Shown here one piece after another: positions 3,941 through 22,512 of a DNA stretch of 37,715 nucleotides. A program made the translations under genes and the position numbers. The stretch lies in the NCBI GenBank assembly GCA_051746725.1, contig JBNJFI010000009.1:1-37715 (forward strand). The letters run 5' to 3'. Below the pieces are notes generated by a model that was given only the letters and a program-made list of their open reading frames with translations, ran no database searches and was not told the DNA's origin. Positions within the stretch are counted from its first letter, which is position 1; the number at the start of each line of letters is the position of its first letter. The DNA comes from Fusobacteriota bacterium. Its GTDB lineage: Bacteria; Fusobacteriota; Fusobacteriia; Fusobacteriales; JBNJFI01.

Positions 3941-4225
3941 TTAATTTCTTATTTCTATTCCATATTTTTCCATTATTTCTTTATACTTCCCACTTTCTTT
4001 TATTTCTTCCAATCCTTTATTAAATGCATTAATTAATTCTTTATGTCTAGGATTTTTAAACCCAATGGCAATATATAATTCCTCGCTAGATAATGGAGTT
4101 TTAACAAAATCTACTTCATTAAGCAAATCTTCGTCTTCTTGTGCCATTTTTATTCTTCCTACAATTTCATCTTCCAAGGTTAAATCTATTCTTCCAGCTA
4201 TTAATTTTCTTATATTAAATTTAGA
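3941..4225 (-). pseudogene. 3' remnant of a family-3 substrate-binding-protein paralog, in frame with the upstream gene and directly after its TAA stop.
   Basis: Reading through the TAA (4226-4228) of ORF 4226..4987 in the same frame gives 'SKFNIRKLIAGRIDLT(L)EDEIVGRIKMAQ...INAFNKGLEEIKESGKYKEIMEKYGIEIRN*'. This aligns with the C-terminal lobe of both SBP paralogs ('LLAGRIDIF...', '...KFNKGLNKLKESGEYDEF'). There is no N-terminal lobe and no signal peptide. Confidence 0.5.
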
Positions 4226-4987: not shown

Positions 4988-4999
4988 TTTAAACCCCTC

Positions 5000-6658: not shown

Positions 6659-6685
6659 ATAAATCCCCCCATTTCTAAATCTTAT

Positions 6686-6958
6686 TAGCTAGTTGCAAAA
6701 CTCTAACCATTACATTTAATTGCTTTTATTACACTTACTTTTAAGGTCTGCCCCCCTCTAAATCTCCCCCTAGCAGGGGAGACTATCTTTATTTTCTTTC
6801 AAAATTGATTTTTAGAAAACATCTGAATTATTTAAACCCTTGCTACTTTCTTGCTTATCCCGTCCCCTGCCAGGGGGAAGGCTAGGAAGGGGGGCTTTAA
6901 ATTGTTGGTAATTCTGTGGATAACCTAAAATTTTATTCTTCAGTTTTGCAACTACCTA
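6686..6958. mobile_element. MITE-like element copy 1: terminal inverted repeats 'tagctagttgcaaaact' ... 'agttttgcaactaccta' around a GC-rich core built from two inverted ~35-nt hairpin units.
   Basis: Left terminus 6686-6702 and right terminus 6942-6958 are reverse complements of each other. The core has 'gcccccct...tctcccc-ctagca-ggggaga' (6750-6783) and its inverted counterpart 'tcccc-tgcca-ggggg...aggggggc' (6863-6898). This is strongly GC-rich in an AT-rich genome. It is homologous at both ends to the element at 21625-21876. Confidence 0.5.
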
Positions 6959-6964
6959 TAAATA

Positions 6965-7375
6965 TTATATTAAAATCATCTTATTTCCATCTATCTCAGA
7001 AACCTTTACTTTATCACCTTTTTCTAAATCTTTTTTGCAAATTCCCATCCACTCTTCACCAAAAATTTTAACTCGATAATTCCCGTCATCTAATTTTTTT
7101 ATAACCTCAACCTCTTTTCCTATATAAGTTTTATTATTACTTTTATACTCGGTGTTGGGATTAAAAATTTCTTTTTTTCTCATAAAAAAGAAAATCCCCA
7201 TTGATAAAATTATATCTATAATTATTAACATAGTTATATCTTCTATCCATAAAGATATTATGCCAGTTATCAAAGTTCCAACTCCTATTCCAAAAAATAT
7301 AAAACTAGATGGGGTAAACATCTCTAATATAATTAGAATTATTCCCAAAATAAATAAAACTTCTGTTATTCCCAT
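6965..7375 (-). CDS. NfeD-like membrane protein (TM N-terminus, C-terminal OB-fold).
   Basis: Hydrophobic N-terminal half, then 'YRVKIFGEEWMGICKKDLEKGDKVKVSEIDGNKMILI', typical of the NfeD C-terminal beta-barrel. The RBS is 'ggaaggagg'. Confidence 0.7.
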   Translation of the reverse strand: MGITEVLFILGIILIILEMFTPSSFIFFGIGVGTLITGIISLWIEDITMLIIIDIILSMGIFFFMRKKEIFNPNTEYKSNNKTYIGKEVEVIKKLDDGNYRVKIFGEEWMGICKKDLEKGDKVKVSEIDGNKMILI

Positions 7376-7390
7376 AATTTCCTCCTTCCC

Positions 7391-8353
7391 TTATCGTTTC
7401 AAATAATCAGAAACTGTAAGAGCTGCTTTTACTCCCTCAGAAGCAGATATTAATATTTGCTTATATGGTACATTTGTAACATCACCTACGGCAAATATAC
7501 CCTTTTTTGATGTTTCATTCTTACAGTTAATTATTATTTCGTTTTTTTCATTTAACTCTAATAGATCTTTTACAAAAAAGGAATTAGGTTTGTATCCTAT
7601 TTCTATAAAAGCTGCCTTTACTTCAAAAGTAGATTTATCATGATTTTTTCTATTTTCAATAACTACTTTTTCTAAATTATCATCACCTTCTAATCTTAAA
7701 ACTTTAGAATCTGTATATATTTTTATGTTATCCAATGATTTTAATTTATCAACTAAAATCTTATCTGCATTTAATTCACTGGTCCATTCTATCAATCTTA
7801 CCGAATTTGTATATTTAGAAAGATCTATTGCAGCTTCTACTGCAGAATTACCTCCTCCTATTACACAAACATCCTCTTTTTTATATAAAGGACCATCACA
7901 TATGGCACAGTACGTAGCTCCTTTTCCATAAAATTTATCCTCTCCTGGTATGCCTAGTTTTTTATTATGAGTTCCTGTGCTTATAATAACACTCCTAGAT
8001 TTAATTACCTCTCCATTCTCTAATTCTGATCCCTTGATTTCATTATATTTGATATTATTAACTTTTACATCTTCTAGAAAAGGAATATCATATGATTTAA
8101 GATGCTTTTCAAATTGACCTACTAATTCTTCTCCCATTATAGATTCAAACCCCAGATAATTTTCTATTACTCCAGAATCCAAAACTTTTCCTCCTAAATT
8201 CTTAGTCACTAAAATAACATCTAAACCTTTTCGTTTTGAATATATAGCAGAAGCAAAAGCTCCTGGTCCACCACCTATTATAATGACATCGTAAATTTTT
8301 TCATAATCAAAATTTTCTTTCTCCTCTGTATCTAGATCGAAATTAAACTCCAT
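7391..8353 (-). CDS. trxB: Thioredoxin-disulfide reductase (TrxB-like; FAD/NAD(P)-binding, CxxC redox centre). Start re-assigned to the internal ATG.
   Basis: Contains 'YDVIIIGGGPGAFASAIY' (FAD GxGxxG), 'CAICDG' redox motif and 'VCVIGGGNSAVEAA' (NADPH site). The ORF track starts at 8395, but the perfect SD 'aaaggaggag' sits 5 nt before the ATG at 8353 ('MEFNFDLD...'). Confidence 0.85.
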   Translation of the reverse strand: MEFNFDLDTEEKENFDYEKIYDVIIIGGGPGAFASAIYSKRKGLDVILVTKNLGGKVLDSGVIENYLGFESIMGEELVGQFEKHLKSYDIPFLEDVKVNNIKYNEIKGSELENGEVIKSRSVIISTGTHNKKLGIPGEDKFYGKGATYCAICDGPLYKKEDVCVIGGGNSAVEAAIDLSKYTNSVRLIEWTSELNADKILVDKLKSLDNIKIYTDSKVLRLEGDDNLEKVVIENRKNHDKSTFEVKAAFIEIGYKPNSFFVKDLLELNEKNEIIINCKNETSKKGIFAVGDVTNVPYKQILISASEGVKAALTVSDYLKR

Positions 8354-8485
8354 TTCTCCTCCTTTATTGCTTCCTTTTTCTTCTTTATCCCCCATCCTAT
8401 TCTTATATTCGAATTATTTTCATTTTTCCTTTAAATTTATACAAGTTATTTATTTAATTTTTTAATCAATTATAATGTATATCCA

Positions 8486-10123
8486 TTATTTACAAAATAA
8501 AGGGATTCTTACTTTGAAAGTAGTCCCTGTACCTTCTTTGGTAGTAAAATCAATATTTCCTCCTATAGCTTCAACTAGTTCCTTTACTATCTTCAAGGAT
8601 ATTCCTGTTCCAGCATATACCTTTGTCATATGATGTTCTCCTTGATAAAATGCTTCAAAGGCTCTTTTAGCTACCTCTTCTTTCATTCCTATACCTGTAT
8701 CAGAAACTATTATTGTAATATAATTATTATTACTTTCTTCTATTTTCACTAATATCTCTCCGTCTGGAGTGAATTTTAAAGCATTTTCCATTAAAAAATA
8801 GATTATATGAACTATTTTAAGTTGATCCCCTGTGTAAACCTTATTATTAACGGCTTTATCTATAGACATTTTCACCTTGGCGTTACTTTTTTGTATAGGA
8901 ATCTTAAGTAAATCTCTTACATCTTTGATTAATTCACTAAATTTAAACTTGCTTTCTCTAATAGAATAATCTTCATTGGCAAGATTATTATGTAATAATA
9001 ATTTTTCTATTAAATCTTCAAGTCTATATGTAGAATCTTTTAATATTGATACCAACTTTTCATTTTCTTTTTCAAAATCACTTGGTAAAAGGTCAATCCC
9101 TCCAATAAGACCTGTAAGTGGAGTTCTTAACTCATGGGACATATTACTTAAAAAATCCTCCTTTATTCTCAAAGCTATTTCAGATTTTTTCATCTCTTCT
9201 TCCAGTTCTTCCATTATTTGATTTTTTTTCTGAATTAATTCGATATTTTCAAAATTTACCTTTATAATATAAATAAAAATTCCAAATAAATAATTTTCTA
9301 TAAGATTAAATCCTCTATCTTTTTTTACGTAACAACAAATTTTATCTCCATTGGATATTTCAAAAAAAGAACATTTAATGAGATTTTCACTCTTTTCTTT
9401 TTCCAAAATTTCCTTTTTAGGTATTTGAATCATTTCGCCAGATTTTGATTTTAAATCTCCTAAACCCGATAATAATCTATAACCATTACTTGATTTCGTA
9501 GCTATATACCCTTCTAAATCGTCTTCAGATCTGTCCCCAAAAATTCTTAATAGATTTTCCATTACTCTATCAGAAAACGACCTTAAATTTTCCTTAGCAT
9601 ATACATCAGTTGTACTTTTAATTATCTTTTCTAGCCCTTTTTTGCTCTGTTCCATGACATCGAGATCTCTATATGCCCTCAAAGCAGAAATTGTAGTAGT
9701 TATTAGTCGTTGAGAAGTTAACTCAGTTTTGTTTTTATAATCATTTATGTCATAATCTCTAATAACTCTTTCCTCAGGCGCTTGTCCTGGCTGACCTGTT
9801 CTCAAAATAATTCGAGTTTTATTATTGTGTAGTTTTTCTCTAACGTATTTAACCACTTCTAAGCCACTATCTTCGCTTTCCATTACGACATCCAAAAATA
9901 AAATTGCTATATCTCTCATACTTTCAATAACTTTTTTGGTTTCCTCTCCAGAATAGCAATTTATAATTTTTATCTTTCTTCCTTCGAGATCTTTATTGTT
10001 TAATATTAATTTTGTAATTTTATGGACATCTTCATTGTCATCTGCTACTAATATTTTCCATTCATTTTCACTTGTTTTTTTTAACTTTTTTTTATTTTTA
10101 TGAAATAACATCTTACTTCCCAT
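8486..10123 (-). CDS. Hybrid two-component protein: N-terminal receiver (REC) domain, central uncharacterised region, C-terminal HisKA + HATPase_c histidine kinase.
   Basis: REC: 'KILVADDNEDVHK...ILFLDVVME' carrying the phospho-Asp. HisKA H-box 'SHELRTPLTGLIGGIDLL'. ATPase G-boxes 'VSDTGIGM' and 'GTGISLKIVKELVEAIGG'. The track start is GTG 10132; the ATG at 10123 has SD 'aggaggtg' 7 nt upstream. Confidence 0.85.
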   Translation of the reverse strand: MGSKMLFHKNKKKLKKTSENEWKILVADDNEDVHKITKLILNNKDLEGRKIKIINCYSGEETKKVIESMRDIAILFLDVVMESEDSGLEVVKYVREKLHNNKTRIILRTGQPGQAPEERVIRDYDINDYKNKTELTSQRLITTTISALRAYRDLDVMEQSKKGLEKIIKSTTDVYAKENLRSFSDRVMENLLRIFGDRSEDDLEGYIATKSSNGYRLLSGLGDLKSKSGEMIQIPKKEILEKEKSENLIKCSFFEISNGDKICCYVKKDRGFNLIENYLFGIFIYIIKVNFENIELIQKKNQIMEELEEEMKKSEIALRIKEDFLSNMSHELRTPLTGLIGGIDLLPSDFEKENEKLVSILKDSTYRLEDLIEKLLLHNNLANEDYSIRESKFKFSELIKDVRDLLKIPIQKSNAKVKMSIDKAVNNKVYTGDQLKIVHIIYFLMENALKFTPDGEILVKIEESNNNYITIIVSDTGIGMKEEVAKRAFEAFYQGEHHMTKVYAGTGISLKIVKELVEAIGGNIDFTTKEGTGTTFKVRIPLFCK

Positions 10124-10204
10124 AAAAATCACCTCCTGATCTATTAACCTAATTAAGTATACTATATATTTTTTTAAATATCAAAAGAAATTACCCAAAA
10201 AAAA

Positions 10205-10231
10205 GAAAGGCTTTTAGCCTCTCTTTTTTTT
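10205..10231 (-). terminator. Intrinsic terminator (A-run, hairpin, T-run) downstream of the MIF-like gene.
   Basis: 'aaaaaaaagaaaggcttttagcctctctttttttt' with stem 'aggct'/'agcct' extended by a few pairs. The flanking A8 and T8 runs make it bidirectional. Confidence 0.55.
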
Positions 10232-10256
10232 GCTTTTAATATTATTTTATTTTAAG

Positions 10257-10616
10257 TTAAGTTCTGCTAGCAAATGTTTTACCATTAAATCCCCAGTCTT
10301 GACGCTCCATCTCAAAAAAGGTTATATAAATCTTATTTGAATCTACATTTAATATTTCATTATATAGCTTTCCAATTCTATTAGTCAAAATATCTTTTTG
10401 TTCTATATTAAGTTTTCCTAATAATTTAATCTCTACATAAGATACCGTATCTAATTTGCCTCCTAAATATATTCTTTTCTCATCTTCAATATTGATCATT
10501 AAAGCTCTTTCAGGTTTTCCGATCTCTTCTTCCATTATCTTTGCAAAACCATGTTTAAGATCTATTTCTTCAGTCTTCGTAACTGCTTTTCCTATCTTAG
10601 TTTCTATAAATGGCAT
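10257..10616 (-). CDS. MIF (macrophage migration inhibitory factor)-family tautomerase homologue with N-terminal Pro1.
   Basis: From the ATG at 10616 the protein begins 'MPFIETKIG...' (Pro right after Met, the tautomerase-superfamily catalytic residue). It is ~118 aa and ends '...IYITFFEMERQDWGFNGKTFA', which parallels the MIF C-terminus '...[20 protein letters not shown]'. SD 'aaaggtga' lies 5 nt upstream. The track start at 10625 is GTG. Confidence 0.6.
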   Translation of the reverse strand: MPFIETKIGKAVTKTEEIDLKHGFAKIMEEEIGKPERALMINIEDEKRIYLGGKLDTVSYVEIKLLGKLNIEQKDILTNRIGKLYNEILNVDSNKIYITFFEMERQDWGFNGKTFASRT

Positions 10617-10632
10617 CAAAATCACCTTTTCC

Positions 10633-11277
10633 TTATTTGATTTTTTCTATTTCTTCTAAAAATTTCTGAATAGGTTGATCTCCTGTGAATTCGTACTCGT
10701 CATTTATTACTATTTTAGGTACACCTCTTACATTAAATTTTTTTGAAAGCTCCTGAAATGTTTGAGCTTCAATCATCTCTCCTGAAATGTGGTCGTTTAA
10801 CATCGCTAATTTATGAGCTTTAGAAACTGCTCCTGGACAATGCGGACATGATAATGTTACAAAAACTTTTATATCTACATCCTTATCTATCGCTTTTATT
10901 TTTTTAGTTATTTCCTCTGGCAGATCATGACCAGAACCTGAAACTTCTAATATTCCATTTACAAAAGAATTAATCTCATGTCCAGCTGGTATTCCATAAT
11001 ATTTTACTCCATTATTTTTCTTATTAGAATCTAAAATTACTATTGCTGGAGCTTTATCAACTTTAAGATCCTCTGCCATTTTTTTATCTTTTTCTATATC
11101 ATATATTTCTAAATTAATTTTTTCAGATAAATCCTGTATCTCATTCATAAAACCTTTGGTATCCTCACATATTTCACATCCATCTTCTTTTAAAAATAAA
11201 ACTAAATTCACCTCATCTTTTAATTTTGAAAATACTTCTTTTAGTTGACCACTTACTTCTTCATTTAATAAACTCAT
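10633..11277 (-). CDS. Protein disulfide oxidoreductase / glutaredoxin-like protein with two thioredoxin-fold units (CxxC x2).
   Basis: Two CXXC motifs ('CEIC' near the N-terminus and 'CPHCP' in the second half) at the spacing typical of archaeal/Thermotogae PDO-type proteins. The RBS is 'aggagg'. Confidence 0.75.
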   Translation of the reverse strand: MSLLNEEVSGQLKEVFSKLKDEVNLVLFLKEDGCEICEDTKGFMNEIQDLSEKINLEIYDIEKDKKMAEDLKVDKAPAIVILDSNKKNNGVKYYGIPAGHEINSFVNGILEVSGSGHDLPEEITKKIKAIDKDVDIKVFVTLSCPHCPGAVSKAHKLAMLNDHISGEMIEAQTFQELSKKFNVRGVPKIVINDEYEFTGDQPIQKFLEEIEKIK

Positions 11278-11325
11278 TTTTTCCTCCTATTTAATTTTTA
11301 TAAAAATATATCATTTTATATTACT

Positions 11326-11703
11326 TTAACAGTCATTTAGTTCTAAATTTAAAGCTTTGACAGAAATCCTGATTTCTAACATAGACAGTAATAGAGAAAA
11401 CAATAGAAATATTAATCCTACTCCAAATAATATCTTCCCCCAAAATTGTTGTTCAACAAATAGTAACATCATACTGAATACTGAGAAAAATAGACTTGTT
11501 ATCCCTAAAAATTGCATATTCTTAATCAAGTTTATTCTGGTTTTTAAATTTTTAATTTGCCCTGAAATAATAGAGTCATCTCCTGAACTTTTCTTTCTAT
11601 GCAATTCTCTTACTAGTCTTGCTAACTCCAAAAATCTATTTGTATATGCAAGCAAAAGAAGAGATAATGCAGAAAAAAGTAAAGCTGGTGTTGTCAAAGT
11701 CAT
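11326..11703 (-). CDS. Small membrane protein (DUF2721-like), three predicted TM helices.
   Basis: Hydrophobic N- and C-terminal helices and a basic loop 'RLVRELHRKKSSGDD'. The RBS is 'aaggagg'. Confidence 0.45.
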   Translation of the reverse strand: MTLTTPALLFSALSLLLLAYTNRFLELARLVRELHRKKSSGDDSIISGQIKNLKTRINLIKNMQFLGITSLFFSVFSMMLLFVEQQFWGKILFGVGLIFLLFSLLLSMLEIRISVKALNLELNDC

Positions 11704-11774
11704 ATTGAACCTCCTTTCATATTAATATATTGTAATATAAATCAATATAAAAGTCAACCTTAATTACATAAATA

Positions 11775-11815
11775 ATAAAAAAAGCGACAGATTGATCTAA
11801 TCTGTCGCTTTTTAT
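11775..11815 (-). terminator. Intrinsic terminator downstream of glgP.
   Basis: 'aaaaaaagcgacagattgatctaatctgtcgcttttt' with an 11-bp stem 'agcgacagatt'/'aatctgtcgct', flanked by A- and T-runs. Confidence 0.65.
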
Positions 11816-11819
11816 TATT

Positions 11820-14270
11820 CTATTTAACGTTAACTGATTCTATTTTCCATATTTCATCTGAATATTGTCTTATTGTTCTATCACTTGAGAATTTTCCAGC
11901 ATTAGCTATATTCATAAGTGACATTTTAGCCCATTTCTTTTTATCTCTATATGCAGCATCTACATCTTCCTGAGATTTTACATATGAATCAAAATCTTTT
12001 AATACATAATAAACATCAGGTCTATTACCATCTAATCCATGCATTAAAGAGTCATAAATATCTCTAAAAATTTCAGTATGATCAACATTATATGTTCCAT
12101 CTATTAATTGATCTACAACTTTTTTCAAGTCAGGGTTACTGTTATATATATCCCATGGATTGTATTGTCCATTTTTATTTAATTTTTCTATTTCATCTGA
12201 ATCTAAACCAAAGATAAATGCATTTTCTTCTCCTGCTTCTTCTACTATCTCAACATTTGCACCATCCATTGTTCCTATTGTTAAAGCCCCATTCAACATA
12301 AACTTCATATTTCCAGTTCCAGAAGCCTCTTTTCCAGCAGTTGATATTTGCTCTGAAATATCAGCAGCAGGGAATAATAATTCTGCATTTGAAACTCTAT
12401 AGTTTTCAATAAATACAACTTTTAATTTTCCATTTATTGATTCATCATTATTGATTCTTTCTCCTACAGTATTTATCAATTTAATTATATCTTTTGCAAT
12501 ATCATATCCAGAAGCCGCTTTTGCTCCAAATATAAATGTTCTTGGATGTATATCTTTTTCTGGATTTTCTTTTAAGTCGTTATATAGTTTCATTATATGT
12601 AAGACATTTAATAATTGTCTCTTATATTCATGAAGTCTTTTAATCTGAATATCAAATATTGAATTAGGATCCACTACAATTCCATTATGTTCTTTGATAT
12701 ATTCAGCTAATTCAACTTTCTTCTCATGTTTAATTTCCATTACTCTATCTAAGATAGCATCATCATCAACAAATTTTTCGAATTCTTCTAATTTTGAAAG
12801 CTCTTTTGCCCAATCTGTACCTATTTTATCATTTAATAAGTCTGATAAAGCTTTATTAGATTTAAGTAGCCATCTTCTCTGTGTTATTCCATTTGTTTTG
12901 TTATTAAATTTCTCTGGGTATAACTCATACCAATCTTTTAATTCTTGATTTTTCAATATTTCTGTATGTAATGCAGCAACACCATTTACTGAATGTGATC
13001 CAACAATAGCCAACCAAGCCATTTTTATAACTCCATCTGCTATGATTCCCATTCTATGATGTCTAGCCCAGTCTCCTGGATATTTCCCTCTTAATTCTAA
13101 TAAAAATCTTCTATTTATTTCTTCTATTATTTGATATTGTCTCGGTAATAAATTTTTAAATAAATCTATTGGCCATTTTTCCAAAGCTTCTGCCAATATT
13201 GTATGGTTTGTATATGCAAAAGTTCTTGTACATATATCCCATGCTGTCTCCCAATCTAGATTTTCCCATCTCATTAATATTCTCATTAATTCAGGAATTG
13301 CAACAACTGGATGCGTATCATTTAATTGTATTGCAACTTTTTCTGGAAATTGAGAAAAGTCTGAACCATATTTTTCTCTATAGTTTTGAACTATATCTTG
13401 TAAACTTGCTGAAACAAAGAAAAATTGTTGTCTCAATCTTAATTCTTTTCCAGAAGGTCCTTTATCATTTGGATATAAAACTCTTGATATATCTTCTGCT
13501 CTATTTCCTTTTTCAACAGATTCTGTATATCTTTCTTGATTAAATAACTGCAGATCAAACTCATTTTCAGCTTCTGCTTCCCATAATCTCAAAGTATTAA
13601 CTGTTTTAGTATCATAACCAACAATTGGCATATCATAAGGTATAGCTTCTACTCTTTCAGTACCTTTTCTTATATATGTTTCTGTTCCATCATCTGCTCT
13701 TTCTACCTCTATATGTCCACCAAATTTAACTATTACAGCTTCATCTTTTCTTTTTATAGTCCAAGCATCTCCATCTTCTAGCCATTTATCAGGATATTCT
13801 ACTTGGTAACCATTTTCTATTCTTTGTTCAAACATTCCATATTTATACTTTATTCCGTAACCATGTCCAGGTAATTCTAGTGTAGCTAAAGAATCTAAAA
13901 AACAAGCAGCTAATCTTCCTAAACCACCATTTCCTAATCCAGCATCAGACTCCTTATCTTCCACCTCATTATAATTAAATCCTAAATCATCTAAAACATC
14001 TTTTACATCTTCTTCAATAAGCATATTTACTAAGTTATTACTTAATGCTCTACCCATTAAAAATTCTGCTGATAAATAATAAGCTTGTTTAACCTCTTTT
14101 TCATCATATGTTTTTTTTGTGTCTACCCAATTTTCTAATACAAGATCCATTGTAGCTTTAGATACTGCTTGAAATACTTGGTTTTCATTTGCTTCTTCTA
14201 AAGTTTTTCCAAATTGCTCTTTCATTTTTAATTTCAAATTACTCTTAAATTCGTTTCTATCAATATTCAT
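11820..14270 (-). CDS. glgP: Glycogen/maltodextrin phosphorylase (GT35).
   Basis: 816 aa. PLP-site motif 'EASGTGNMKFMLNGALTIGTMDGANVEI'. Also 'NGGLGRLAACFLDS' and 'YPND' motifs. Confidence 0.95.
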   Translation of the reverse strand: MNIDRNEFKSNLKLKMKEQFGKTLEEANENQVFQAVSKATMDLVLENWVDTKKTYDEKEVKQAYYLSAEFLMGRALSNNLVNMLIEEDVKDVLDDLGFNYNEVEDKESDAGLGNGGLGRLAACFLDSLATLELPGHGYGIKYKYGMFEQRIENGYQVEYPDKWLEDGDAWTIKRKDEAVIVKFGGHIEVERADDGTETYIRKGTERVEAIPYDMPIVGYDTKTVNTLRLWEAEAENEFDLQLFNQERYTESVEKGNRAEDISRVLYPNDKGPSGKELRLRQQFFFVSASLQDIVQNYREKYGSDFSQFPEKVAIQLNDTHPVVAIPELMRILMRWENLDWETAWDICTRTFAYTNHTILAEALEKWPIDLFKNLLPRQYQIIEEINRRFLLELRGKYPGDWARHHRMGIIADGVIKMAWLAIVGSHSVNGVAALHTEILKNQELKDWYELYPEKFNNKTNGITQRRWLLKSNKALSDLLNDKIGTDWAKELSKLEEFEKFVDDDAILDRVMEIKHEKKVELAEYIKEHNGIVVDPNSIFDIQIKRLHEYKRQLLNVLHIMKLYNDLKENPEKDIHPRTFIFGAKAASGYDIAKDIIKLINTVGERINNDESINGKLKVVFIENYRVSNAELLFPAADISEQISTAGKEASGTGNMKFMLNGALTIGTMDGANVEIVEEAGEENAFIFGLDSDEIEKLNKNGQYNPWDIYNSNPDLKKVVDQLIDGTYNVDHTEIFRDIYDSLMHGLDGNRPDVYYVLKDFDSYVKSQEDVDAAYRDKKKWAKMSLMNIANAGKFSSDRTIRQYSDEIWKIESVNVK

Positions 14271-14339
14271 TATTGATATCTCCTTTCAAATTGTCAAATT
14301 TTTATTAAAATATGTTTCTTTATTATTAGTTGCTCGTAT

Positions 14340-14368
14340 ATTATACCTATTTTAATACAAATTGTCAA
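14340..14368 (-). promoter_or_regulatory. Consensus sigma70 promoter for glgP on the minus strand: TTGACA, 17-bp spacer, TATAAT.
   Basis: The rc of 14340-14368 is 'ttgaca atttgtattaaaatagg tataat'. A second 'aaattgtcaaattt' copy at 14288-14301 may be a tandem -35-like element or operator. Confidence 0.5.
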
Positions 14369-14446
14369 ATTTTAAAAGCTAAAGTTTATTTCAAGTTTTC
14401 ATAATTTCACTTCTTTCTTATATTTCTTTACATAAACGCGAGATTA

Positions 14447-14483
14447 TACAAAAAAGGGAACCCAAGATTGGGTTCCCTTTTTT
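14447..14483 (-). terminator. Intrinsic terminator downstream of the repeat-lipoprotein gene.
   Basis: 'aaaaaagggaacccaagattgggttccctttttt' with a 9-bp GC-containing stem 'gggaaccca'/'tgggttccc', flanked by A- and T-runs. Confidence 0.65.
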
Positions 14484-14505
14484 GTATAATTTAGATAAAA
14501 TATTT

Positions 14506-15560
14506 TTATCTTCGTTCTACAGCTATTTTTGCTAATTGTTTTATTAATTGTGACATCAAACTTTGAAATTCTTTATAACTTTCTTCCAAAGACATTTCCG
14601 ATAAATCTTTTCCTTCTACTTTTTCACCTTTTATTGCAGAAAGTAAATTTATTCCATCTTCATAATCTTTTACTATTTCATCTTTTGATCTTTCTATTTC
14701 TACTTCTTGCTTTGCCCCTTCTGAACCTATTGCTTTAATTACTTCAGATATTACCTTTTGAAATTCTTTATAACTTTCTTCCAAAGACATTTCCGATAAA
14801 TCTTTTACTTTTACTTTTTCATTTTTTATTGCAGAAAGAACATTTGATGCATCTTTATAATCTCTTATAATCTCTTCTTTTGATTTTTCTATAGCTATTT
14901 CCCTTTCAGCACCTGCTAATCCTAATTCTTGAACTAACATTGATATTATGTTCTGGAACTCTCTATAGCTTTCTTCCAAGGACATTTCCGATAAATCTTT
15001 TTCTTCTACTTTTTCACCTTTTATTGAAGAAAGTAAATTTATTCCATCTTTATAATCATTTATAATTTCTTCCTTTGATCTTTGAATCTTTAACTCTTGT
15101 TCAGCTCCAGCTTTACCTAAAGCTTCTATTAATTGTGAAATTACATTTTGAAATTCCTTATAAGCTTTTTCTGTTGTCATTTCATCCAATTTTTTCGCTT
15201 CTTTTTTCTCTCCTGTTAGTAAAGATAAAAGTTTTATACCATCTTCATAATCCTTTATGATATCAAGCTTTAATGATAATCCTTCAGTTTCTTGAACTCT
15301 TGTATTTAAAGCTCTAGATAAATGACCCATTATTTTTTCCATTACATTTTGAAATTCCTCATAAGCTGCAGCTGGCGTCATCTTTGTTAAGTCTTTCTTT
15401 TTAATCTCTTTTTCTTCTATTATTGATAACATTTCTAGTGCATTTTCATAATCTTCATTGATTTTGTTAATTGGTTTTTCAAATCCTTGTTTATACAATT
15501 CTTGTCTGATTTGATTATTTGTAGCCTTTAGAGTATCATAAAGTTCCTCTTCTGACATTG
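14506..15560. repeat. ~195-bp tandem DNA repeats (about 5 diverged copies) inside the lipoprotein CDS.
   Basis: The near-identical segment 'ctttataactttcttccaaagacatttccgataaatctttt' recurs at about 14573, 14766 and 14961. The period equals 65 codons. Confidence 0.7.
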
Positions 15561-15786
15561 TACTTACATCTTTGGACTTAACTTCCTCCCCTGTTAATGT
15601 TGCTAATATTTTTCTATTTAACTTATAATCTTTCTTTAAAGTCTCTGACAATTGACTCTCTACTTTCTCCTCTTTTACAGCTTTAGATTCCATAGCCTTA
15701 GATTCTTCCGTCTCACTAGTAGTACACCCTCCAATTAGCAACAATGAAGACAATAAAACACCAAGCATAAAATTTCTCTTTCTCAT
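14506..15786 (-). CDS. Lipoprotein made of about five and a half tandem copies of a ~65-aa helical repeat. Function unknown.
   Basis: Signal peptide plus lipobox 'LLLIGGCTTS'. The repeat unit is roughly 'KDLSEMSLEESYKEFQxxISxLxxxLGxAGAxxExxIExSKEEIIxDYKDGINLLSxIKGEKV'. The RBS is 'gggagggg'. Confidence 0.7.
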   Translation of the reverse strand: MRKRNFMLGVLLSSLLLIGGCTTSETEESKAMESKAVKEEKVESQLSETLKKDYKLNRKILATLTGEEVKSKDVSTMSEEELYDTLKATNNQIRQELYKQGFEKPINKINEDYENALEMLSIIEEKEIKKKDLTKMTPAAAYEEFQNVMEKIMGHLSRALNTRVQETEGLSLKLDIIKDYEDGIKLLSLLTGEKKEAKKLDEMTTEKAYKEFQNVISQLIEALGKAGAEQELKIQRSKEEIINDYKDGINLLSSIKGEKVEEKDLSEMSLEESYREFQNIISMLVQELGLAGAEREIAIEKSKEEIIRDYKDASNVLSAIKNEKVKVKDLSEMSLEESYKEFQKVISEVIKAIGSEGAKQEVEIERSKDEIVKDYEDGINLLSAIKGEKVEGKDLSEMSLEESYKEFQSLMSQLIKQLAKIAVERR

Positions 15787-15926
15787 AATTTACCCCTCCC
15801 ATTTATTTTTATTTTAACTTTCAAGTAAGTATACTTTATAATTTTTGATAAATCAAACTTTTTTTCAAATTTATCAAAAAAGATTAGTATCACCCCTTTT
15901 TTGAGCAATTCTAATCTTTTTTGATT

Positions 15927-17726
15927 TTAGTTATCTAATTTTAATATTGACAAAAAAGCTTCTTGTGGAATATCTACGCTTCCTATATTTTTCATTCTTT
16001 TCTTTCCTTCTTTTTGCTTTTCAAGTAGTTTCTTTTTACGAGTAATGTCTCCACCGTAACATTTTGACAACACATCTTTTCTCAAAGCTTTTATTGTAGA
16101 TCTAGCAATTACCTTACTTCCAATTGCTGCTTGTAAAGGAATTTTAAATTGCTTTTTTGGTATTACATTTTTTAATTTTTCAACAACTGCTTTTCCTCTA
16201 TTATATGCAGAATCTCGATGTATAATAAATGAAAATGCATCTACAACTTCTTTATTTACTAGAATATTTACTTTCGTTAAATCAGATTTTCTATAATCCA
16301 AAGTCTCATATTCAAAAGAAGCATATCCTCTAGTTTTTGACTTTAATTTATCATAAAAATCTACTATTATTTCTGCTAAAGGAAGCTCATATTTTATCAT
16401 AACTCTATCTTCATCAAGATATTTCATATCTTTAAATTCCCCTCGTTTTTCCTGGCAAAGTTCCATAACATTACCAACGAACTCTTCAGGGATCATTACA
16501 GTTCCTTCTATATAAGGTTCTTCAACATAATCTATTTGACCATCTGGATATTCTATAGGGCTATCTATTTCTAATACTTCTCCATCACTTTTAGCTACTC
16601 TGTATATTACACTTGGGCTAGTAGAAATAAGATCAATTCCATATTCACGCCTTAATCTTTCAACTATTATCTCCATATGCAAAAGGCCCAAAAATCCAGC
16701 TCTAAATCCAAATCCTAAAACAGAAGAACTTTCTGGTTCAAAATATAAAGAAGCATCATTTAATTGTAACTTTTCTATTGCATCTCTAAGATCTTCATAA
16801 TCATCTGTTGATATAGGGTAAATCCCTGCATATACCATTGGCTGACTTTCTTGATACCCTGATAAAGGTTCAGTCGCCCTATTATATGCTAGAGTGATGG
16901 TATCTCCAATTTTTGTATCCGCTATATTTTTTATTCCTGAGATAATATAACCAACATCTCCGGCTTTAAGTGAACCTGTTTCTTTTCTAGTAGGAGAAAA
17001 AATCCCTACTTCTAAAACTTCAAATTTTTGCTTAGTTGACATTATCTCTATTTGATCCCCTTTTTTGACTTGACCTTCCATTACTCTTGTATATGTAATT
17101 ACACCTCTATAATCATCAAAATGTGAATCAAATATTAAAGATCTCAAAGGTTTATCAATTTCAAACTTTGGTGCTGGAATACGTTTTACTATTGCCTCTA
17201 ATAAGTCTTGGGTTCCTTCTCCTGTCTTTCCACTGGTAAGAACTGCATCCGATGCATCTATTCCAACAACTTCTTCTATCTCCTTTTTCACTTTTTCAAT
17301 GTTGGCATTGGGAAGATCTATTTTATTTATTACTGGAATTATCTCTAAATCATGTTCTAAAGCTAAATAAACATTTGCCAATGTCTGAGCCTCAACACCT
17401 TGAGTTGCATCTACTATTAATAAGCATCCCTCACAAGCTGTCAAGCTTCTCGAAACTTCATAAATAAAATCAACATGGCCAGGTGTATCTATCATATTTA
17501 ATTTATATTTCTGATTATCTTTGGCATCATAAAAACATGTAACGGCCTGTGATTTTATAGTGATTCCTTTTTCTCTTTCCAAATCCATACTATCTAATAA
17601 TTGTTCTTTCATATCTCTTTTCGTTATTGTTCCTGTATATTCTAACATTCTATCTGCCAAAGTCGATTTTCCATGATCAATATGAGCAATAATAGAAAAA
17701 TTTCGAATATTTTCTGCTTTTTTCAA
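15927..17726 (-). CDS. lepA: Translation elongation factor 4 (LepA).
   Basis: '[18 protein letters not shown]' G1 motif, 'DTPGHVDF' G3 and the LepA-specific C-terminal domain. ~599 aa. The start is TTG at 17726 with 'aggagg' upstream. Confidence 0.95.
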
Positions 17727-17742
17727 AATCTAGTCCTCCTAT

Positions 17743-19524
17743 TTATATCATTTCCTCTTCTTTTTCAACAACTCCAGTTAAATCATTGAAGTTGAAATCC
17801 ATTGCTAATATAGCTACAAATTCATCTTTTTCATTGGTTACAGGAGTAGATGCTGTAAAGCATAATTTCCCAGTTGTTTCTGATATGTAATAATCTGTAA
17901 CATGTGTTTTTCCATCTGATAAAACTTGTGAAAACCAAGGTCTATCTGTTCTGTCATCACCTTTTTTGGAAATATTATCAGATTTTTTCTTTAATTCTTT
18001 TTGAGATATATTCTCTGTTATCTGAATACCTTCTGCATCTGTCATATAAACCATTTGTATATATTTATTTTCTTCTATAACATTGCTTAATACCGAACAT
18101 ATTTTTTCATAATCCATACTCTTTATTTCAGGTAATTCAGCATACTCTTTGATAAGTTCTTTTACTTTTTGAGTTGTCTTTTCTCCAATTTTTTCAAACT
18201 CTGTTTTAAATAATTCTGGCATATGTTTTCTTGTTAACTCATACATTTCATCGTTTGAGATTGCAGTAGTTCTACCATTATCATATTGTTCATCAATCCA
18301 TCTATATATTTTAGTTATTTTTGGATGCTTTTTACTTATTTTTTCTTTAGGATTTAAGTTTGCATTTATCCAATGTGTTATCCCGGCAACACCTGACTTA
18401 TCAGTTATACTAACTTTAAGCGGTCTATCTAATATAGTAGTTGTATCAAAAATATTATATATTTCCTCATTTTTTATTGCACCATCTGCATGAATCCCTG
18501 CTCTAGTTACATTAAAATCCTCTCCAATAAAAGGATATCGTCTAGAAATTGCAATTCCCATTTCATTTTGCATAAATCTAGCTATATCTGTGATTACTTT
18601 AGTATTAATAGTTTCATCATGACCTTTAAGAGACATGTAATCCATAATCAAACCTTCTATAGGTGGGTTTCCTGTTCTTTCTCCTATTCCCACTAAAGTT
18701 CCGTTAACTGCTGCTGCTCCATACATCCAAGCAGCTGTTCCGTTAACTAAAACTTTATGAAAATCATTATGCCCATGCCATTCAATTAATCTAGAAGGCA
18801 CACCTAATTCAGATTTTAAAATTTGGATCATTTTAGGAACAGATCTCGGAATTTCAACAGATGGAAACGGAACTCCATATCCCATTGTATCACAAAGTCT
18901 AATCTTAACATCAACACCAGATTTCTTTGAAATTTCCATTAGACCTTCTACAAATGGAATAACCACTCCTCTAAAGTCTGCTCTAGTAATATCTTCTAAG
19001 TGACATCTTGCAACTATCCCTTCACTTACAACAGTTCTAACAACATCTAGATATTTATTAATTATTGTTTTTCTATCACTTTTTAATTTTTTATAAATAT
19101 GGTAGTCTGATACAGATGTTAATATTCCCGTTTCTTTTAATTCTAAGTCTTTAACAAGTTCAAAATCTTTTTTGCTAGCTCTCATCCAACTTGTTATTTC
19201 AGGAAATTTTAAACCTAAATTTTTACAGCTTTCCACTGCTCTTCTATCTCTATCACTATATAGAAAAAATTCAGTCTGTCTTATCAACCCCTTTTTTCCA
19301 CCTAATTCATTTAGATATTTATATAATTTTACAATATGGTCCTCTTTAAAAGGAGCCATTGATTGTTGTCCATCTCTAAAAGTTGTATCTGTTATCCAAA
19401 TATCCTCTGGCATATCTGGAGTTATTATTTTATTTTCCATTTTTATTTTTGGCACTTCTTTATAACTAAATGTATCTCTAAGTAAATTTGGCTTTTCTAA
19501 GTTTATCAATCTGTTATTTTTCAT
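17743..19524 (-). CDS. Fusion protein: N-terminal DRE-TIM metallolyase domain (LeuA/homocitrate-synthase/HMGL-like) plus C-terminal Cache-like (PAS-fold) ligand-binding domain.
   Basis: N-terminus: 'TDTTFRDGQQS' (cf. LeuA 'DTTLRDGEQS') and 'HGHNDFHKVLVNGTAAWMYGAAAVNGTLVGIGERTGNPPIEGL' (cf. LeuA 'HCHND...GIGERAGN'). C-terminus: 'DRPWFSQVLSDGKTHVTDYYISETTGKLCFTASTPV...DEFVAILAMDFNFNDL', the classic Cache/sCache signature (RPWY...DPY.D..TG.LVIT.S.PV...G.LGVDI.L..L). No TM segments. Confidence 0.65.
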   Translation of the reverse strand: MKNNRLINLEKPNLLRDTFSYKEVPKIKMENKIITPDMPEDIWITDTTFRDGQQSMAPFKEDHIVKLYKYLNELGGKKGLIRQTEFFLYSDRDRRAVESCKNLGLKFPEITSWMRASKKDFELVKDLELKETGILTSVSDYHIYKKLKSDRKTIINKYLDVVRTVVSEGIVARCHLEDITRADFRGVVIPFVEGLMEISKKSGVDVKIRLCDTMGYGVPFPSVEIPRSVPKMIQILKSELGVPSRLIEWHGHNDFHKVLVNGTAAWMYGAAAVNGTLVGIGERTGNPPIEGLIMDYMSLKGHDETINTKVITDIARFMQNEMGIAISRRYPFIGEDFNVTRAGIHADGAIKNEEIYNIFDTTTILDRPLKVSITDKSGVAGITHWINANLNPKEKISKKHPKITKIYRWIDEQYDNGRTTAISNDEMYELTRKHMPELFKTEFEKIGEKTTQKVKELIKEYAELPEIKSMDYEKICSVLSNVIEENKYIQMVYMTDAEGIQITENISQKELKKKSDNISKKGDDRTDRPWFSQVLSDGKTHVTDYYISETTGKLCFTASTPVTNEKDEFVAILAMDFNFNDLTGVVEKEEEMI

Positions 19525-19550
19525 TTATATCACCTCTTTTTATTTAGTAT

Positions 19551-19579
19551 ATTATATCAATAAATTCAATAATTGTCAA
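19551..19579 (-). promoter_or_regulatory. Consensus sigma70 promoter for the DRE-TIM/Cache gene: TTGACA, 17-bp spacer, TATAAT.
   Basis: The rc of 19551-19579 is 'ttgaca attattgaatttattga tataat'. It lies about 25 nt upstream of the ATG at 19524. Confidence 0.5.
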
Positions 19580-19634
19580 TTATGTTAAGTTTACATATGT
19601 TTTACTTTTTTTAATTTTTAGTATAATTTCTAAA

Positions 19635-19672
19635 TATAAAAAATCTTCCTATTATTTTAGGAAGATTTTCAT
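19635..19672 (-). terminator. Intrinsic terminator downstream of phnA.
   Basis: 'aaaaaatcttcctattattttaggaagatttt' with a 10-bp stem 'aatcttccta'/'taggaagatt', flanked by A- and T-runs. Confidence 0.6.
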
Positions 19673-19685
19673 AAAATTATAAATT

Positions 19686-20033
19686 TTAACCTTTTTTGAC
19701 AAATTCCGATTTTAATTTCATAGCCCCAAATCCATCTATCTTGCAATCTATATTGTGATCGCCTTCTACTAATCTTATATCTTTAACCCGTGTACCTCTT
19801 TTTAGAGGATCTGAGCTTCCTTTTACTTTTAAGTCTTTTACTATTGTAATCTCATCTCCATCTTCTAATATGTTTCCATATGCATCTCTTATTAATTTCT
19901 CTTTTGGCTCATCTTTTCCCTTCATATCTGCTGTCTCAGTCCATTCATGGGAACACATAGGACATACAAGTAAATATCCATCCTTATATGTAAATTCAGA
20001 TCCACATTCAGGACATTTTGGTAAATTTTCCAT
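19686..20033 (-). CDS. phnA: PhnA-family zinc-ribbon protein (YjdC/PhnA).
   Basis: Zinc ribbon '[10 protein letters not shown]...CPMCSHEW', then '[52 protein letters not shown]', nearly identical in pattern to E. coli PhnA. The likely start is the ATG at 20033 (RBS 'gaaaggagaaa'). The track start at 20090 overlaps the upstream gene. Confidence 0.85.
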
Positions 20034-20065
20034 ATTTTCTCCTTTCAAAATACTTTCTTGTTTCT

Positions 20066-21472
20066 TTAAAAAGTGGATAATCCACTCCACTCTTGAAATC
20101 TATATACCCAATATTTAAACTTTGATTTATCTTCAAATTTAGAATAATCTACAGTATAAATCCCTTCTTTATTATTCCAAAGTCTATCAAATGATTCAGT
20201 AACTTCTTTTGTAAACTCTATATCTTTAGGAACACTTATTTTTAAATTAGTTTCTAAATTATAATCCCCTATATTTCGCCGCGTGTAATTTGCAGATCCA
20301 CCTATTACAATAGATTCATTATTTTTTTCAATATATATATATTTCGTATGGAATTGCTCTCCTTTAGTATTTGCCCATCGAATTTTTATGTCTGTCTCCT
20401 TTTTTAATTCATAAGCAACTTGTCTATTAGGAATCCCTGGTTTTTCTCTACCAAATGCGTCTTTATTAGGATCCAAAATCATTTTTATCTCTACTCCTCT
20501 ATTAGAAGCTTTTTTGAATTCCTTTATAATTTTTCGATCTGCTATATAAAACATTCCAAGGTTGATCTTATCCCCTTTTTTGCAATCGCTTATTTCTCTT
20601 ATAACAGATTCTCTTATCTTTCCCTCTGTAATTACTTTTACTTTAAAATTTTTAGTAATATCTTTACTTATATTTTCTGGTTTATTTTGTTTTTTATATT
20701 TTACTCCATTTAAATCAGATCCAGATAATTTCGCAACTGCACGTTCTGTATCCAATAAATCACCTAAAATTTTCCCTTCTAATATAAATGCAATATTTGA
20801 ATGATAAGAACTTGCATCATGAGGATTCCCAGATGTTACAATTGCTTTTTTGTCTGTAATAACAACCTTTCTATGATTTGCTTTAAAATTAAGTAATTTC
20901 AAATAAGATCTTAGAGTTACTTTAGGAGCATTATCGGTAAATGGATTTGGTAACCAACCATTTCCAGAAGTTCCAAACCACTGAAAAAATACTTTCCATA
21001 TAGAAGACCAGAGCTTATTACTATCTTTCAATTTATTTAAATCTGTTATAATTACTTCTATATCATTTTCTTTTAACCTTCTAAACATTTCATTTTCATA
21101 TGATCCATAAAAATTGTTTATTTCATCAGATATAACTATTATTTCTATGTTTTCTTCTCTGTTTTTAGCTTCAATTAAAGAATCAGTTAACTGTCTAGAT
21201 AAATCTATAAAAGAATCTCCTTTGTCATAATAATTATTATATAAAAACATATCTATTATTATATATTCTTTTGCTTCATCAATAATCGTGAATATGTTTT
21301 CAAATATCTCCTGCTCATGGACTCTTTTTCCATCTTTAATATAAGTTATATCGTTTAAAAATTCTACATTTGAAGTTCTTCTAACTGGCGTTTCAACTGA
21401 TATCCCCTTGGGTAAACCCCGACATCCAAGATTAAAAAGTATTAACAATCCTAGTAATGTATTTTTTCTCAT
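20066..21472 (-). CDS. Secreted/lipoprotein phospholipase-D-family protein with two HKD motifs (cardiolipin-synthase/PLD-like).
   Basis: Signal peptide '[17 protein letters not shown]'. HKD motif 1 'NHRKVVITD...TSGNPHDAS'. HKD motif 2 'FHTKYIYIE...[11 protein letters not shown]'. Confidence 0.8.
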
Positions 21473-21562
21473 TTTTTTCCTTTCCTAGATATAATTATTT
21501 TAATCAATATAATTATATCATATTGTTATATTTTTTTCAAAGCTATTAAATTTGAGATTAAC

Positions 21563-21591
21563 TATAAAATCTAAATATAATATGTTATAAT
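21563..21591 (+). promoter_or_regulatory. Candidate extended -10 promoter (TGtTATAAT) reading toward the element and the J-domain gene.
   Basis: 'tgttataat' at 21583-21591 with a weak -35 'tataaa' 17 bp upstream. The same 'atgttataat' motif appears in the permease promoter at 32367-32377. Confidence 0.3.
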
Positions 21592-21610
21592 AGGGATATA
21601 ATCATTTACT

Positions 21611-21890
21611 AGAATATAAAATTAGGAAGTTGCAAAACTAAAAAGATAAGATATCAAGTTTTCCACAGATTTATTAACAGAATTAGTTTTGGGGATGCGG
21701 TCGAAGGCTCTTCGCCCTTACATTTCAGATTACGTAGGGATAAAGAATATCAGTTTTTCTGTAAGGGCAAATGGCGTTTGCCCGGGTGTGAGCAGTATAT
21801 AAAAATGGAGGGAAGCCTTAATTATCAGGTCTAATAAATTAAATAAAATCAGTGAATTACAATTTTGCAACTAGCTAGAATATAAAATTA
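21611..21890. mobile_element. MITE-like element copy 2 (21625-21876, inverted relative to copy 1), flanked by a perfect 14-bp direct repeat 'agaatataaaatta' (21611-21624 and 21877-21890).
   Basis: Termini 'ggaagttgcaaaacta' (21625-21640) and 'attttgcaactagcta' (21863-21878) are inverted repeats. About 55 bp at each end align with the copy at 6686-6958 in reverse-complement orientation, including a shared 'ttaagg' 53-54 nt in and a shared 'ctgtgga[a/t]aac' near the other end. The GC-rich core differs and contains hairpins 'cgaag-gct-cttcg' and 'gggcaaa-tggcg-tttgccc'. Confidence 0.5.
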
Positions 21891-22008
21891 AAAGGGGGCC
21901 ATTATCAATACCAATAAAATTGAAAATCTTATAATTAAAATTTTAAAAAAAAATAAAGCTGGATTAACCGAACATAACCTTATTTTAAAATTACAAAAGA
22001 AATCTTTT

Positions 22009-22473
22009 TTGCCCAAGACTTCCCACTCAGATTCACTATCAATATTTCAAGTACATTTTATTTTGTTTAATACTCTTTATAAATTAAGAGAAAAGTTACT
22101 AAAAGCAAAAAAGGGAATTTTAGATATCCATACTTTAGAAATCAAACTTAAGGATTTCAAAAAAGGAAATAAAGGGATCTCAGAATACGATCCCCTAGCA
22201 GAATATTATTTGGATATTTCGAATTTAGAAAATACTACAAAAAAGGATGTAGAAGACCTTTTAGATAGTTTCTGGAAAAAATATTTGGCTAAAGATTATA
22301 AAGTCGATGCTTTAAAAGTTTTGGATCTTAAAGAACCAGTTGATTATAAAACTATAAAATCTAAATATAAAAAATTGGCCTCTAAATATCATCCTGATGT
22401 TGGAGGAGATATAAAAAAAATTCAAATTTTGAACCAAGCTATGGAAACTTTAAATAATTATTATGGAAAATAA
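22009..22473 (+). CDS. J-domain (DnaJ-like) protein with C-terminal J domain. TTG start as called by the track; the true start may be further upstream.
   Basis: C-terminal 'DYKTIKSKYKKLASKYHPDVGGD' with the HPD motif. The reading frame is open upstream to 21892 ('KGAIINTNKIENLIIKILKKNKAGLTEHNLILKLQKKSF...'), directly after the strong RBS 'aaaggggg' (21891-21898). No canonical start codon sits there (ATT 21901 / ATC 21904). Confidence 0.7.
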   Translation: MPKTSHSDSLSIFQVHFILFNTLYKLREKLLKAKKGILDIHTLEIKLKDFKKGNKGISEYDPLAEYYLDISNLENTTKKDVEDLLDSFWKKYLAKDYKVDALKVLDLKEPVDYKTIKSKYKKLASKYHPDVGGDIKKIQILNQAMETLNNYYGK

Positions 22474-22512
22474 ATCTAAGGACTTACTTATTATAAATCA
22501 ATTTAAATAATT

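Follow-up and report, generated by a model that had tools for sequence, protein, structure and literature searches.

The window, by which we mean the whole stretch of 37,715 nucleotides analysed here, is one contig (JBNJFI010000009.1) of a metagenome-assembled genome (MAG) of a Fusobacteriota bacterium (GCA_051746725.1). It has a G+C content of about 28%, and all genes from 1645 to 21472 lie on the minus strand. The subject of this report is a pair of short segments in the window, elements A and B (Table 1), which are probable members of a family of miniature transposable elements with inverted repeats (MITEs). Element A is found in the trxB-NfeD-MCP gene row, where it starts 6 nt past the NfeD stop codon within what was formerly an intergenic gap of about 20 nt. 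Element B lies in the 5′ leader of the plus-strand gene for a DnaJ-related protein. If a strong promoter-like site upstream of B is used, B would be part of the transcribed 5′ untranslated region. No open reading frame (ORF) of at least 80 amino acids overlaps either element.

The 17-nt terminus pattern TAGSWAGTTGCAAAAYT was searched across the window with up to three mismatches. It matched at the four terminal inverted repeats (TIRs) of A and B and nowhere else; 0.23 matches were expected by chance, and four were reached in 0 of 100 shuffles. The paired-terminus pattern likewise returned only A and B. Element A, read on the plus strand, is collinear with element B, read on the minus strand. 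These results agree with a sequence-only reading of the window, which had described two look-alike segments in opposite orientation with 17-nt TIRs. That reading had also claimed that about 55 bp align at each end. We refer to the end bearing TT(A/T)TCCACAG as End2 and to the end bearing TTAAGG as End1. When A and B were compared with the TIRs excluded (2000 shuffles), the 53 nt inside End2 scored 29 against 14.0 ± 2.4 in the shuffles, a significant similarity (0/2000), whereas the 53 nt inside End1 showed no significant similarity beyond the TIR (255/2000). Thus, the claim stood for End2 and was weak for End1. The End1 motifs of A and B were found again in two more copies, L106 and L122. The interiors had been called unrelated and are, as the cores of A and B share no significant similarity (207/2000 shuffles); overall identity is 58%, without a long perfect tract. 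The direct repeats said to flank the elements are present at both (Table 1).

The cores had also been described as structured. This is true of A, whose RNA fold is far more stable than those of shuffles (z = −6.1) due to its nested inverted repeat, but it is not true of B, which is no more structured than shuffles (z = −1.0). Each arm of the nested repeat of A contains a TCTCCCC-loop-GGGGAGA hairpin. The sole terminator-like hairpin in A is on the plus strand (6763-6782), antisense to the operon. The GC hairpin module of the A core (GTCTCCCC-loop-GGGGGAGATTTAGAGGG; window 6750-6895) was also seen in a different unit bounded by inverted repeats, at locus L108 (1110-1260), whose ends (ATGTCGTCAACTTAAGAA...) resemble TIRs of the IS231 type. 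This suggests that unrelated MITE families of these communities may share hairpin modules.

A second shared feature lies inside End2. The subterminal TTATCCACA of A, which we take to be a perfect DnaA-box consensus, and its counterpart in B, TTTTCCACA, are the only two TTWTCCACA sites in the window. A DnaA-box-like motif of this kind, T(T/A)TCCACA, is common to the four window-type copies (A, B, L106 and L122), at 36-45 nt from the End2 tip in each. It is degenerate (TGTACAYAG) in the JAFGUR-type copies described below. The putative DnaA box could be a host-factor site or a second transposase-binding site; the outside end of IS50 contains a DnaA box.

Further copies were sought with the paired family ends by scanning a collection of species-representative genomes and, with a stricter pattern, metagenome contigs. 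From the genomes came 12 stretches, all belonging to a single MAG (JAFGUR01, Fusobacteriaceae bacterium ZodW_maxbin.210). In them we counted 13 full copies and one solo TIR; L085, which is among the 13, was sampled only as a contig-start fragment. The metagenome scan returned 21 stretches, mostly from RRZT01 and RRZU01, with about 17 element-bearing loci, about 14 of them non-redundant. Together, these sources give about 26 non-redundant copies beyond A and B. A single-terminus scan of viral contigs gave 29 isolated chance matches and no pairs. A solo TIR was seen at locus L041 (820-836; TAGCTAGTTGCAAAATT, minus strand), in a 47-nt gap between two co-directional genes and 9 nt upstream of the GGAG of the downstream one; it is probably the remnant of a deleted copy.

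Copies of the family are 219-273 bp long. Their TIR is a 17-nt imperfect repeat, TAGnWnGTTGCAAAAYT, with tips TAG...CTA, and it is conserved in the other copies as well as in A and B. Most copies belong to the JAFGUR type, the main coherent sub-family (219-261 bp, 82% mean column identity). L106 and L122, which are 91% identical to each other, form a second type, and A and B each have a core of their own. Cores are unrelated between sub-families. In addition to the TIR, all types have in common a collinear ACTAAAAA after the End2 TIR and a AATAAAAT-like block before the End1 TIR. The sequence-only reading had taken A and B for members of an undescribed non-autonomous family. The copies found in JAFGUR01 and the RRZT01/RRZU01 contigs, the duplications seen at nearly every copy, two empty sites, and the lack of a match in Rfam, a plasmid collection or the literature all speak for it.

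Mobility was assessed by reconstructing the predicted empty sites and comparing them with all collected loci. Two contigs, L055 and L110, are 97-98% identical over more than 5 kb and differ by two reciprocal filled and empty sites. The copy at 148-367 of L110 is flanked on both sides by AATGTAATTG, where L055 is uninterrupted and has a single AATGTAATTG. Conversely, L055 has a copy at 4344-4598 where L110 has a single AATATAAAATT. Each filled site differs from its empty counterpart by exactly TAG...CTA and one additional copy of an AT-rich target of 10-11 bp. These sites are direct evidence of transposition for the family. In the window, the predicted empty site of A joins 6675 to 6959 with one TAAATNTTAT kept, and that of B joins 21622 to 21889. 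The nearest homologues of the genes flanking A and B are 57% and 41% identical, so that we had no close relative for an empty-site comparison, and an exact-protein look-up of the flanking genes returned no record.

The insertion sites follow a common geometry relative to the Shine-Dalgarno sequence (SD) of the downstream gene. Copies were oriented by internal motifs alone, before the flanks were inspected, and removal of twice-sampled loci left 28 scorable sites, A and B included. At 28/28 sites, End1 points toward the downstream gene; past it come the other copy of the duplication, a short A-rich stretch and an SD-like G-run. Duplications are clear at 22 sites; they are AT-rich and 9-15 bp long (10 bp at eight sites, 11 bp at eight, 12 bp at two, 13 bp at two, 9 bp at one and 15 bp at one). 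The distance from the gene-side edge of the duplication to GGAG, GAGG or GGGG is 5 nt in 19 of these 22 sites and 6 nt in the other three. Both window elements obey this spacing, A with GAAAT-GGGGGG before the MCP start and B with TAAAA-GGGGG before the DnaJ-related gene. The spacing from the End1 tip to the SD varies (14-20 nt); the constant quantity is the duplication edge. Of the 28 sites, 24 lead into a long ORF with a canonical start codon at +22 to +32, and the remaining four keep an SD-like motif. The genes downstream of the copies are functionally unrelated: they encode AzlC, LacZ, an acyltransferase, an FMN reductase, GH1, a DAPG hydrolase, an Na/H exchanger, ClpP, ThiD, IclR, the MCP and the DnaJ-related protein. 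The upstream neighbour is co-directional at 20 of 24 scorable sites and divergent at four. As the length of the duplication is variable and its gene-side edge is fixed, one cut looks anchored to the SD and the other loose. The fixed edge looks like a mark left by the cutting of the target.

Two observations concern individual sites. The DnaJ-related gene (PF12339 plus DnaJ) has no in-frame ATG, GTG or TTG between its SD (21894-21898) and 22009. The Pfam match begins at residue 5 of the frame opened at 21901, and the corresponding NCBI protein of 184 amino acids implies an ATT start at 21919. An SD without a canonical start was also seen at three other family sites (L052, L118 and L122). At locus L116, a fresh copy lies between an older decayed copy and the same SD. 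The mutated End1 half of the older copy (GATTTTAGCAACAAGT, about 1340-1416) is directly upstream of the intact copy (1430-1648), whose 13-bp duplication spans all the space from the old tip to the position 5 nt before the SD. Thus, the same ribosome-binding site was hit twice.

Could selection produce this geometry from MITEs that insert anywhere AT-rich? Under this explanation, neither position nor orientation is targeted, and the survivors are insertions that did not disrupt genes or terminate transcription, or that supplied a promoter or a leader. It would fit the 20 of 24 sites between co-directional genes, where polarity would be counter-selected, and the confinement of the terminator-like hairpin of A to the antisense strand. 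The TTGCAA of IS6-type ends is, moreover, a known bidirectional −35 motif (PMC6807381). However, the property open to selection, the distance from the End1 tip to the SD, is the one that varies, and the duplication edge, 5 nt from the SD, is the one that does not. This edge abuts no element sequence in the filled site, so selection acting on the completed insertion would hardly explain its constancy. Neutral insertions, for instance downstream of genes, are absent among the 28 sites. Neither a consensus promoter nor, on either strand, a terminator-like site is present in the JAFGUR-type copies, and an outward promoter built on the TTGCAA of End1 would have its −10 overlapping the SD, too near to serve the downstream gene. 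We therefore regard selection without targeting as unlikely.

We conclude that A and B are probably diverged copies of a family of non-coding MITEs of uncultured Fusobacteriota that insert at the SD in a position- and orientation-specific manner. We propose that a trans-acting transposase of the DDE type reads the purine-rich SD region in DNA asymmetrically and binds a site similar to the inner portion of IS6/IS26 ends. The spacing between the SD and the point where End2 is joined would be fixed, and that for End1, further upstream, would be looser. The inserted element would then ride in a 5′ leader or between a pair of co-directional genes, where it would be transcribed from outside and would carry no gene of its own. 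The mechanistic part of this model is one that we regard as plausible, though it might equally prove wrong: the machinery reads the SD in double-stranded DNA, one strand transfer occurs upstream of the G-run at a distance of exactly 5 nt, the other lies another 9-15 nt away in the upstream direction, a single orientation is used, and the partner enzyme has an IS6-like inner end-binding site with different tips.

Several points weigh against this interpretation. It is from the geometry alone that we infer a reading of the SD by the transposition machinery. Duplications are degraded or unclear at six of the 28 sites, and a spread of 9-15 bp in duplication length is unusual for DDE transposases. 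Mobility was demonstrated for the JAFGUR-type sub-family, not for A or B, and the visible window-type copies in their own genome number two, on one contig of the MAG. As for a partner enzyme, Pfam searches of 30 ORFs found no transposase domain in the window, and tblastn of the collected loci with a Tnp26 sequence gave no IS6-like ORF below E = 0.07. When 234 kb of fusobacterial loci were compared with one another, no segment of at least 400 bp proved to be multi-copy, and the matches were orthologous overlaps. The apparent link to IS6 is one of resemblance, which gives a lead to the type of end-binding domain. Assignment to an insertion sequence (IS) family from the ends alone is ambiguous, as GGGGCTGT-type tips are also found in IS1016/IS1595.

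Table 1. Coordinates of elements A and B and of their surroundings in the window.
Feature	Position	Strand	Details
Element A	6686..6958	-	273 bp; between the NfeD stop codon (6965-6967) and the SD of the MCP gene; sense is the minus strand; End2 at 6958, End1 at 6686
A, End1 TIR	6686..6702	+	TAGCTAGTTGCAAAACT
A, End2 TIR	6942..6958	-	TAGGTAGTTGCAAAACT
A, subterminal TTATCCACA	6915..6923	-	36-44 nt from the End2 tip
A, GC-rich core	6750..6895		nested inverted repeat GCCCCCCT...AGGGGGGC
A, target-site duplication, upstream copy	6959..6968		TAAATATTAT (plus strand); includes the NfeD stop codon
A, target-site duplication, gene-side copy	6676..6685		TAAATCTTAT; 9/10 match to TAAATATTAT
A, target context	6656..6675	-	spacer GAAAT (5 nt) 6671-6675; SD GGGGGG 6665-6670; MCP ATG 6656-6658
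Promoter-like site	21552..21581	+	TTGAGA-18-TATAAT (11/12); 42 nt upstream of B
B, target-site duplication, upstream copy	21612..21622		GAATATAAAAT
Element B	21623..21877	+	255 bp; in the 5′ leader of the DnaJ-related gene; sense is the plus strand; End2 at 21623, End1 at 21877
B, End2 TIR	21623..21639	+	TAGGAAGTTGCAAAACT
B, subterminal TTTTCCACA (DnaA-box-like)	21659..21667	+	37-45 nt from the End2 tip
B, End1 TIR	21861..21877	-	TAGCTAGTTGCAAAATT
B, target-site duplication, gene-side copy	21878..21888		GAATATAAAAT; 11/11 match
B, target context	21889..21921	+	spacer TAAAA (5 nt) 21889-21893; SD GGGGG 21894-21898; start region of the DnaJ-related gene

The position of the units in transcribed leaders, directly upstream of genes, raises a different explanation, namely that they are conserved cis-regulatory RNA leaders or, as the sequence-only reading had offered, small-RNA cassettes bracketed by a promoter and a terminator, and not mobile DNA. 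The strong fold of A would be in keeping with this, as would an AT-rich hairpin of the JAFGUR type (ACATAAAAAAC-GTA-GTTTTTTATGT) that shows compensatory changes, with six double changes at pair 215-237. However, the copies have target-site duplications, and two precise empty sites exist. The downstream genes are unrelated, the cores are unrelated between sub-families and the fold of B is unremarkable. No consensus sigma-70 promoter was found inside the elements and no terminator in the sense direction, and the one terminator-like hairpin, in A, is antisense to the operon. Covariation in the JAFGUR type is weak overall, with double changes in 4 of 44 pairs, and convincing for the one AT hairpin alone. 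Neither the window nor any of 12 related loci gave a gathering-level match in Rfam 15, where the matches seen were microRNA or snoRNA noise below threshold, and a search of A and B in E-value mode returned nothing. No tRNA or tmRNA was found. On balance, it is very improbable that the units are RNA leaders or cassettes; as the sole explanation this is already contradicted, and the cassette proposal is not supported. A regulon or a riboswitch was also considered and was rejected on the diversity of the downstream genes. We treat the elements as selfish passengers of leaders and intercistronic gaps. An effect at the RNA level, for example through a 17-bp stem formed by the TIRs or through C-rich runs that pair with the SD, is a candidate.

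The opposite orientation of A and B had led to the proposal, offered as speculative, that recombination between them could invert the segment 6958-21624. In this explanation the two elements form a pair of inverted repeats, and the 14.7 kb between them, trxB through the PLD gene, would be flipped by the pair or moved with it as a composite transposon. A and B are indeed inverted, with 17-nt termini and about 50 nt of similar sequence at one end in common. However, each has its own matched duplication (9/10 bp for A and 11/11 bp for B). An odd number of exchanges between A and B would separate the matching copies, and a composite insertion would instead duplicate the outer flanks. Thus, there has been no A × B inversion since insertion, and the pair is not a composite transposon. 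Gene strand and GC skew are continuous across both boundaries. The skew is negative throughout the window and its sign never changes. It is −0.25 to −0.39 across the A boundary and through the bracketed segment, and it is shallower in two windows with plus-strand genes (about 21-23 kb and 31.5-33.5 kb), including the region near B (−0.15, 21001-23000), which spans the DnaJ-related gene. In addition, the homology shared by A and B amounts to 17 nt plus patches. Inversion or composite movement is thus even harder to credit than an RNA function, and we consider it hardly possible. We attribute the arrangement to the targets: A and B are mutually inverted solely because one target, the MCP gene, is read from the minus strand and the other, the DnaJ-related gene, from the plus strand. 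Orientation directed by replication was also considered and was rejected, as the two elements face opposite ways inside a single skew domain.

MITEs are common, and a further pair of copies would by itself be routine. The family is, as far as the searched resources show, undescribed, and it comes from a poorly sampled phylum. What appears to be new is insertion that is anchored to the SD, specific in orientation and accompanied by a duplication of variable length; we did not find this described in the literature. If the geometry reflects the enzyme, it would represent a new principle of target recognition, aimed at gene starts in general and not at one attachment site. The family would then be a natural means of placing some 250 nt of foreign sequence in many 5′ leaders without destroying genes. 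This would bear on the evolution of leaders and operon junctions and might provide a tool for leader insertion. One fixed and one variable cut is a mechanistic signature that can be tested directly. For annotation, the 306-nt gap between NfeD and MCP and the long leader of the DnaJ-related gene should be read as insertions and not as native regulatory regions, and the inverted arrangement of A and B as having no special meaning.

Three other features of the contig were observed. An ORF of 426 amino acids (14506-15786) contains three or four tandem 195-nt repeats (14515-15204, 74-100% identity); it encodes a repetitive protein with no Pfam match. At 32459-33457, in one of the few plus-strand islands, are two abutting plus-strand ORFs of 158 and 173 amino acids. 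Both match the same N-terminal half of ArsP_1 (PF03773), and by this match they are apparently tandem half-size paralogues, not one split gene. The closest homologues of the PLD-family gene (20066-21472) are 53-57% identical, and the named top matches are from Clostridia and Bacillota, none of them fusobacterial. The gene may have been acquired horizontally, or the lineage may simply be poorly sampled.

The paired-terminus scan also returned units of 215-270 bp that end in GRGGCTGTTGCAAAAYT / ARTTTTGCAACAGCCYC, at loci among L030-L105 (examples are L036, L044, L049, L053, L057, L062, L064, L066, L069, L070, L074, L076, L079, L080, L083, L088, L092 and L094). Their hosts are Bacteroidota, Lachnospiraceae, Verrucomicrobiota, Lentisphaerota, Patescibacteria, Acidobacteriota and one Methanomassiliicoccales archaeon, some genomes with several units each. 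No obvious duplications were seen at these units by eye. They look like MITEs of the IS6 or IS1016 type. A further contig, L119 (Ga0207120_1068), GC-richer by eye, has three short units (3233-3448, 5965-6213 and 7384-7504). Their ends mix GAG and TAG tips (GAGCTAGTTGCAAAATT, TAGGTAGTTGCAAAACT and TAGGTACTTGCAAAATT), and it is possible that they bridge the GG-tipped and TA-tipped classes.

Among known systems, the ends of the family recall those of IS6/IS26. The TIR consensus of IS6/IS26 is GGTTCTGTTGCAAA, in which G1, G2 and G7 are near-invariant; IS26 cannot do without the GG, TTGCAA serves as a −35 in both directions, and 8 bp of target are duplicated (PMC6807381). Only two IS6 family MITEs, MITEBth2 and MITEHarch3, are listed in ISfinder (227-336 bp). 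Positions 7-14 of the family TIR, GTTGCAAA, are identical to GGTTCTGTTGCAAA at the same offset from the tip in every terminus. The family TIR thus has G7, G10 and, at positions 8-14, TTGCAAA with its −35-like hexamer TTGCAA, and the family is similar in size to the IS6 MITEs. Unlike IS6/IS26, the family has TA(G) tips in place of GG, both at 4/4 window termini and at every fusobacterial copy, and it duplicates 9-15 bp (modes 10 and 11; 10 bp at the exact empty site) where IS6/IS26 duplicates 8 bp. Our searches of the window and of the collected loci revealed no IS6-type transposase, and IS6 elements have not been reported to choose sites beside ribosome-binding sites. As it lacks two defining features, the GG tips and the 8-bp duplication, the family should not be filed as an IS6/IS26 derivative.

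Two other IS families share traits with the elements. The IS1016 subgroup of the IS1595 family (for example ISApl4) has the TIR GGGGCTGTACTAGA and AT-rich duplications of 7-9 bp. Its GGGGCTGT-type tips resemble the GGGGCTGTTGCAAAAYT elements of other phyla from the same scan. The AT-rich targets are a likeness, but the window TIR shares only G3 and G7-T8 with this subgroup, its duplication is longer, and no partner was found in the loci that we searched. In the IS4 family, IS231 duplicates 10-12 bp, and the DnaA box of IS50/Tn5 lies in the outside end. Our elements have a similar AT-rich duplication of about 10-12 bp and, in the window-type copies, a fixed TTATCCACA-like subterminal motif. They differ from the IS4 family in their unrelated TIR and in a wider spread of duplication length (9-15 bp); in the JAFGUR type, moreover, the motif has degenerated, and no IS4-type transposase was found among the same loci.

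Searches of a plasmid collection in distant mode gave no match for A or for one JAFGUR-type copy, and literature searches returned nothing relevant on Fusobacterium MITEs, on the GTTGCAAAA motif or on insertion sequences or MITEs that target the SD. To our knowledge, no IS or MITE anchors its insertion at the ribosome-binding sites of arbitrary genes in a fixed orientation, and we know of no fixed SD spacing or obligatory orientation described for MITEs of the Correia or ERIC type. The Correia elements of Neisseria (NEMIS) and the enterobacterial ERIC/IRU sequences are small, non-coding repeats bounded by TIRs, found in leaders and intercistronic gaps, co-transcribed with neighbouring genes and able to form long hairpins through their TIRs. 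Unlike our family, however, Correia elements duplicate TA, occur in both orientations and lie at variable distances from genes.

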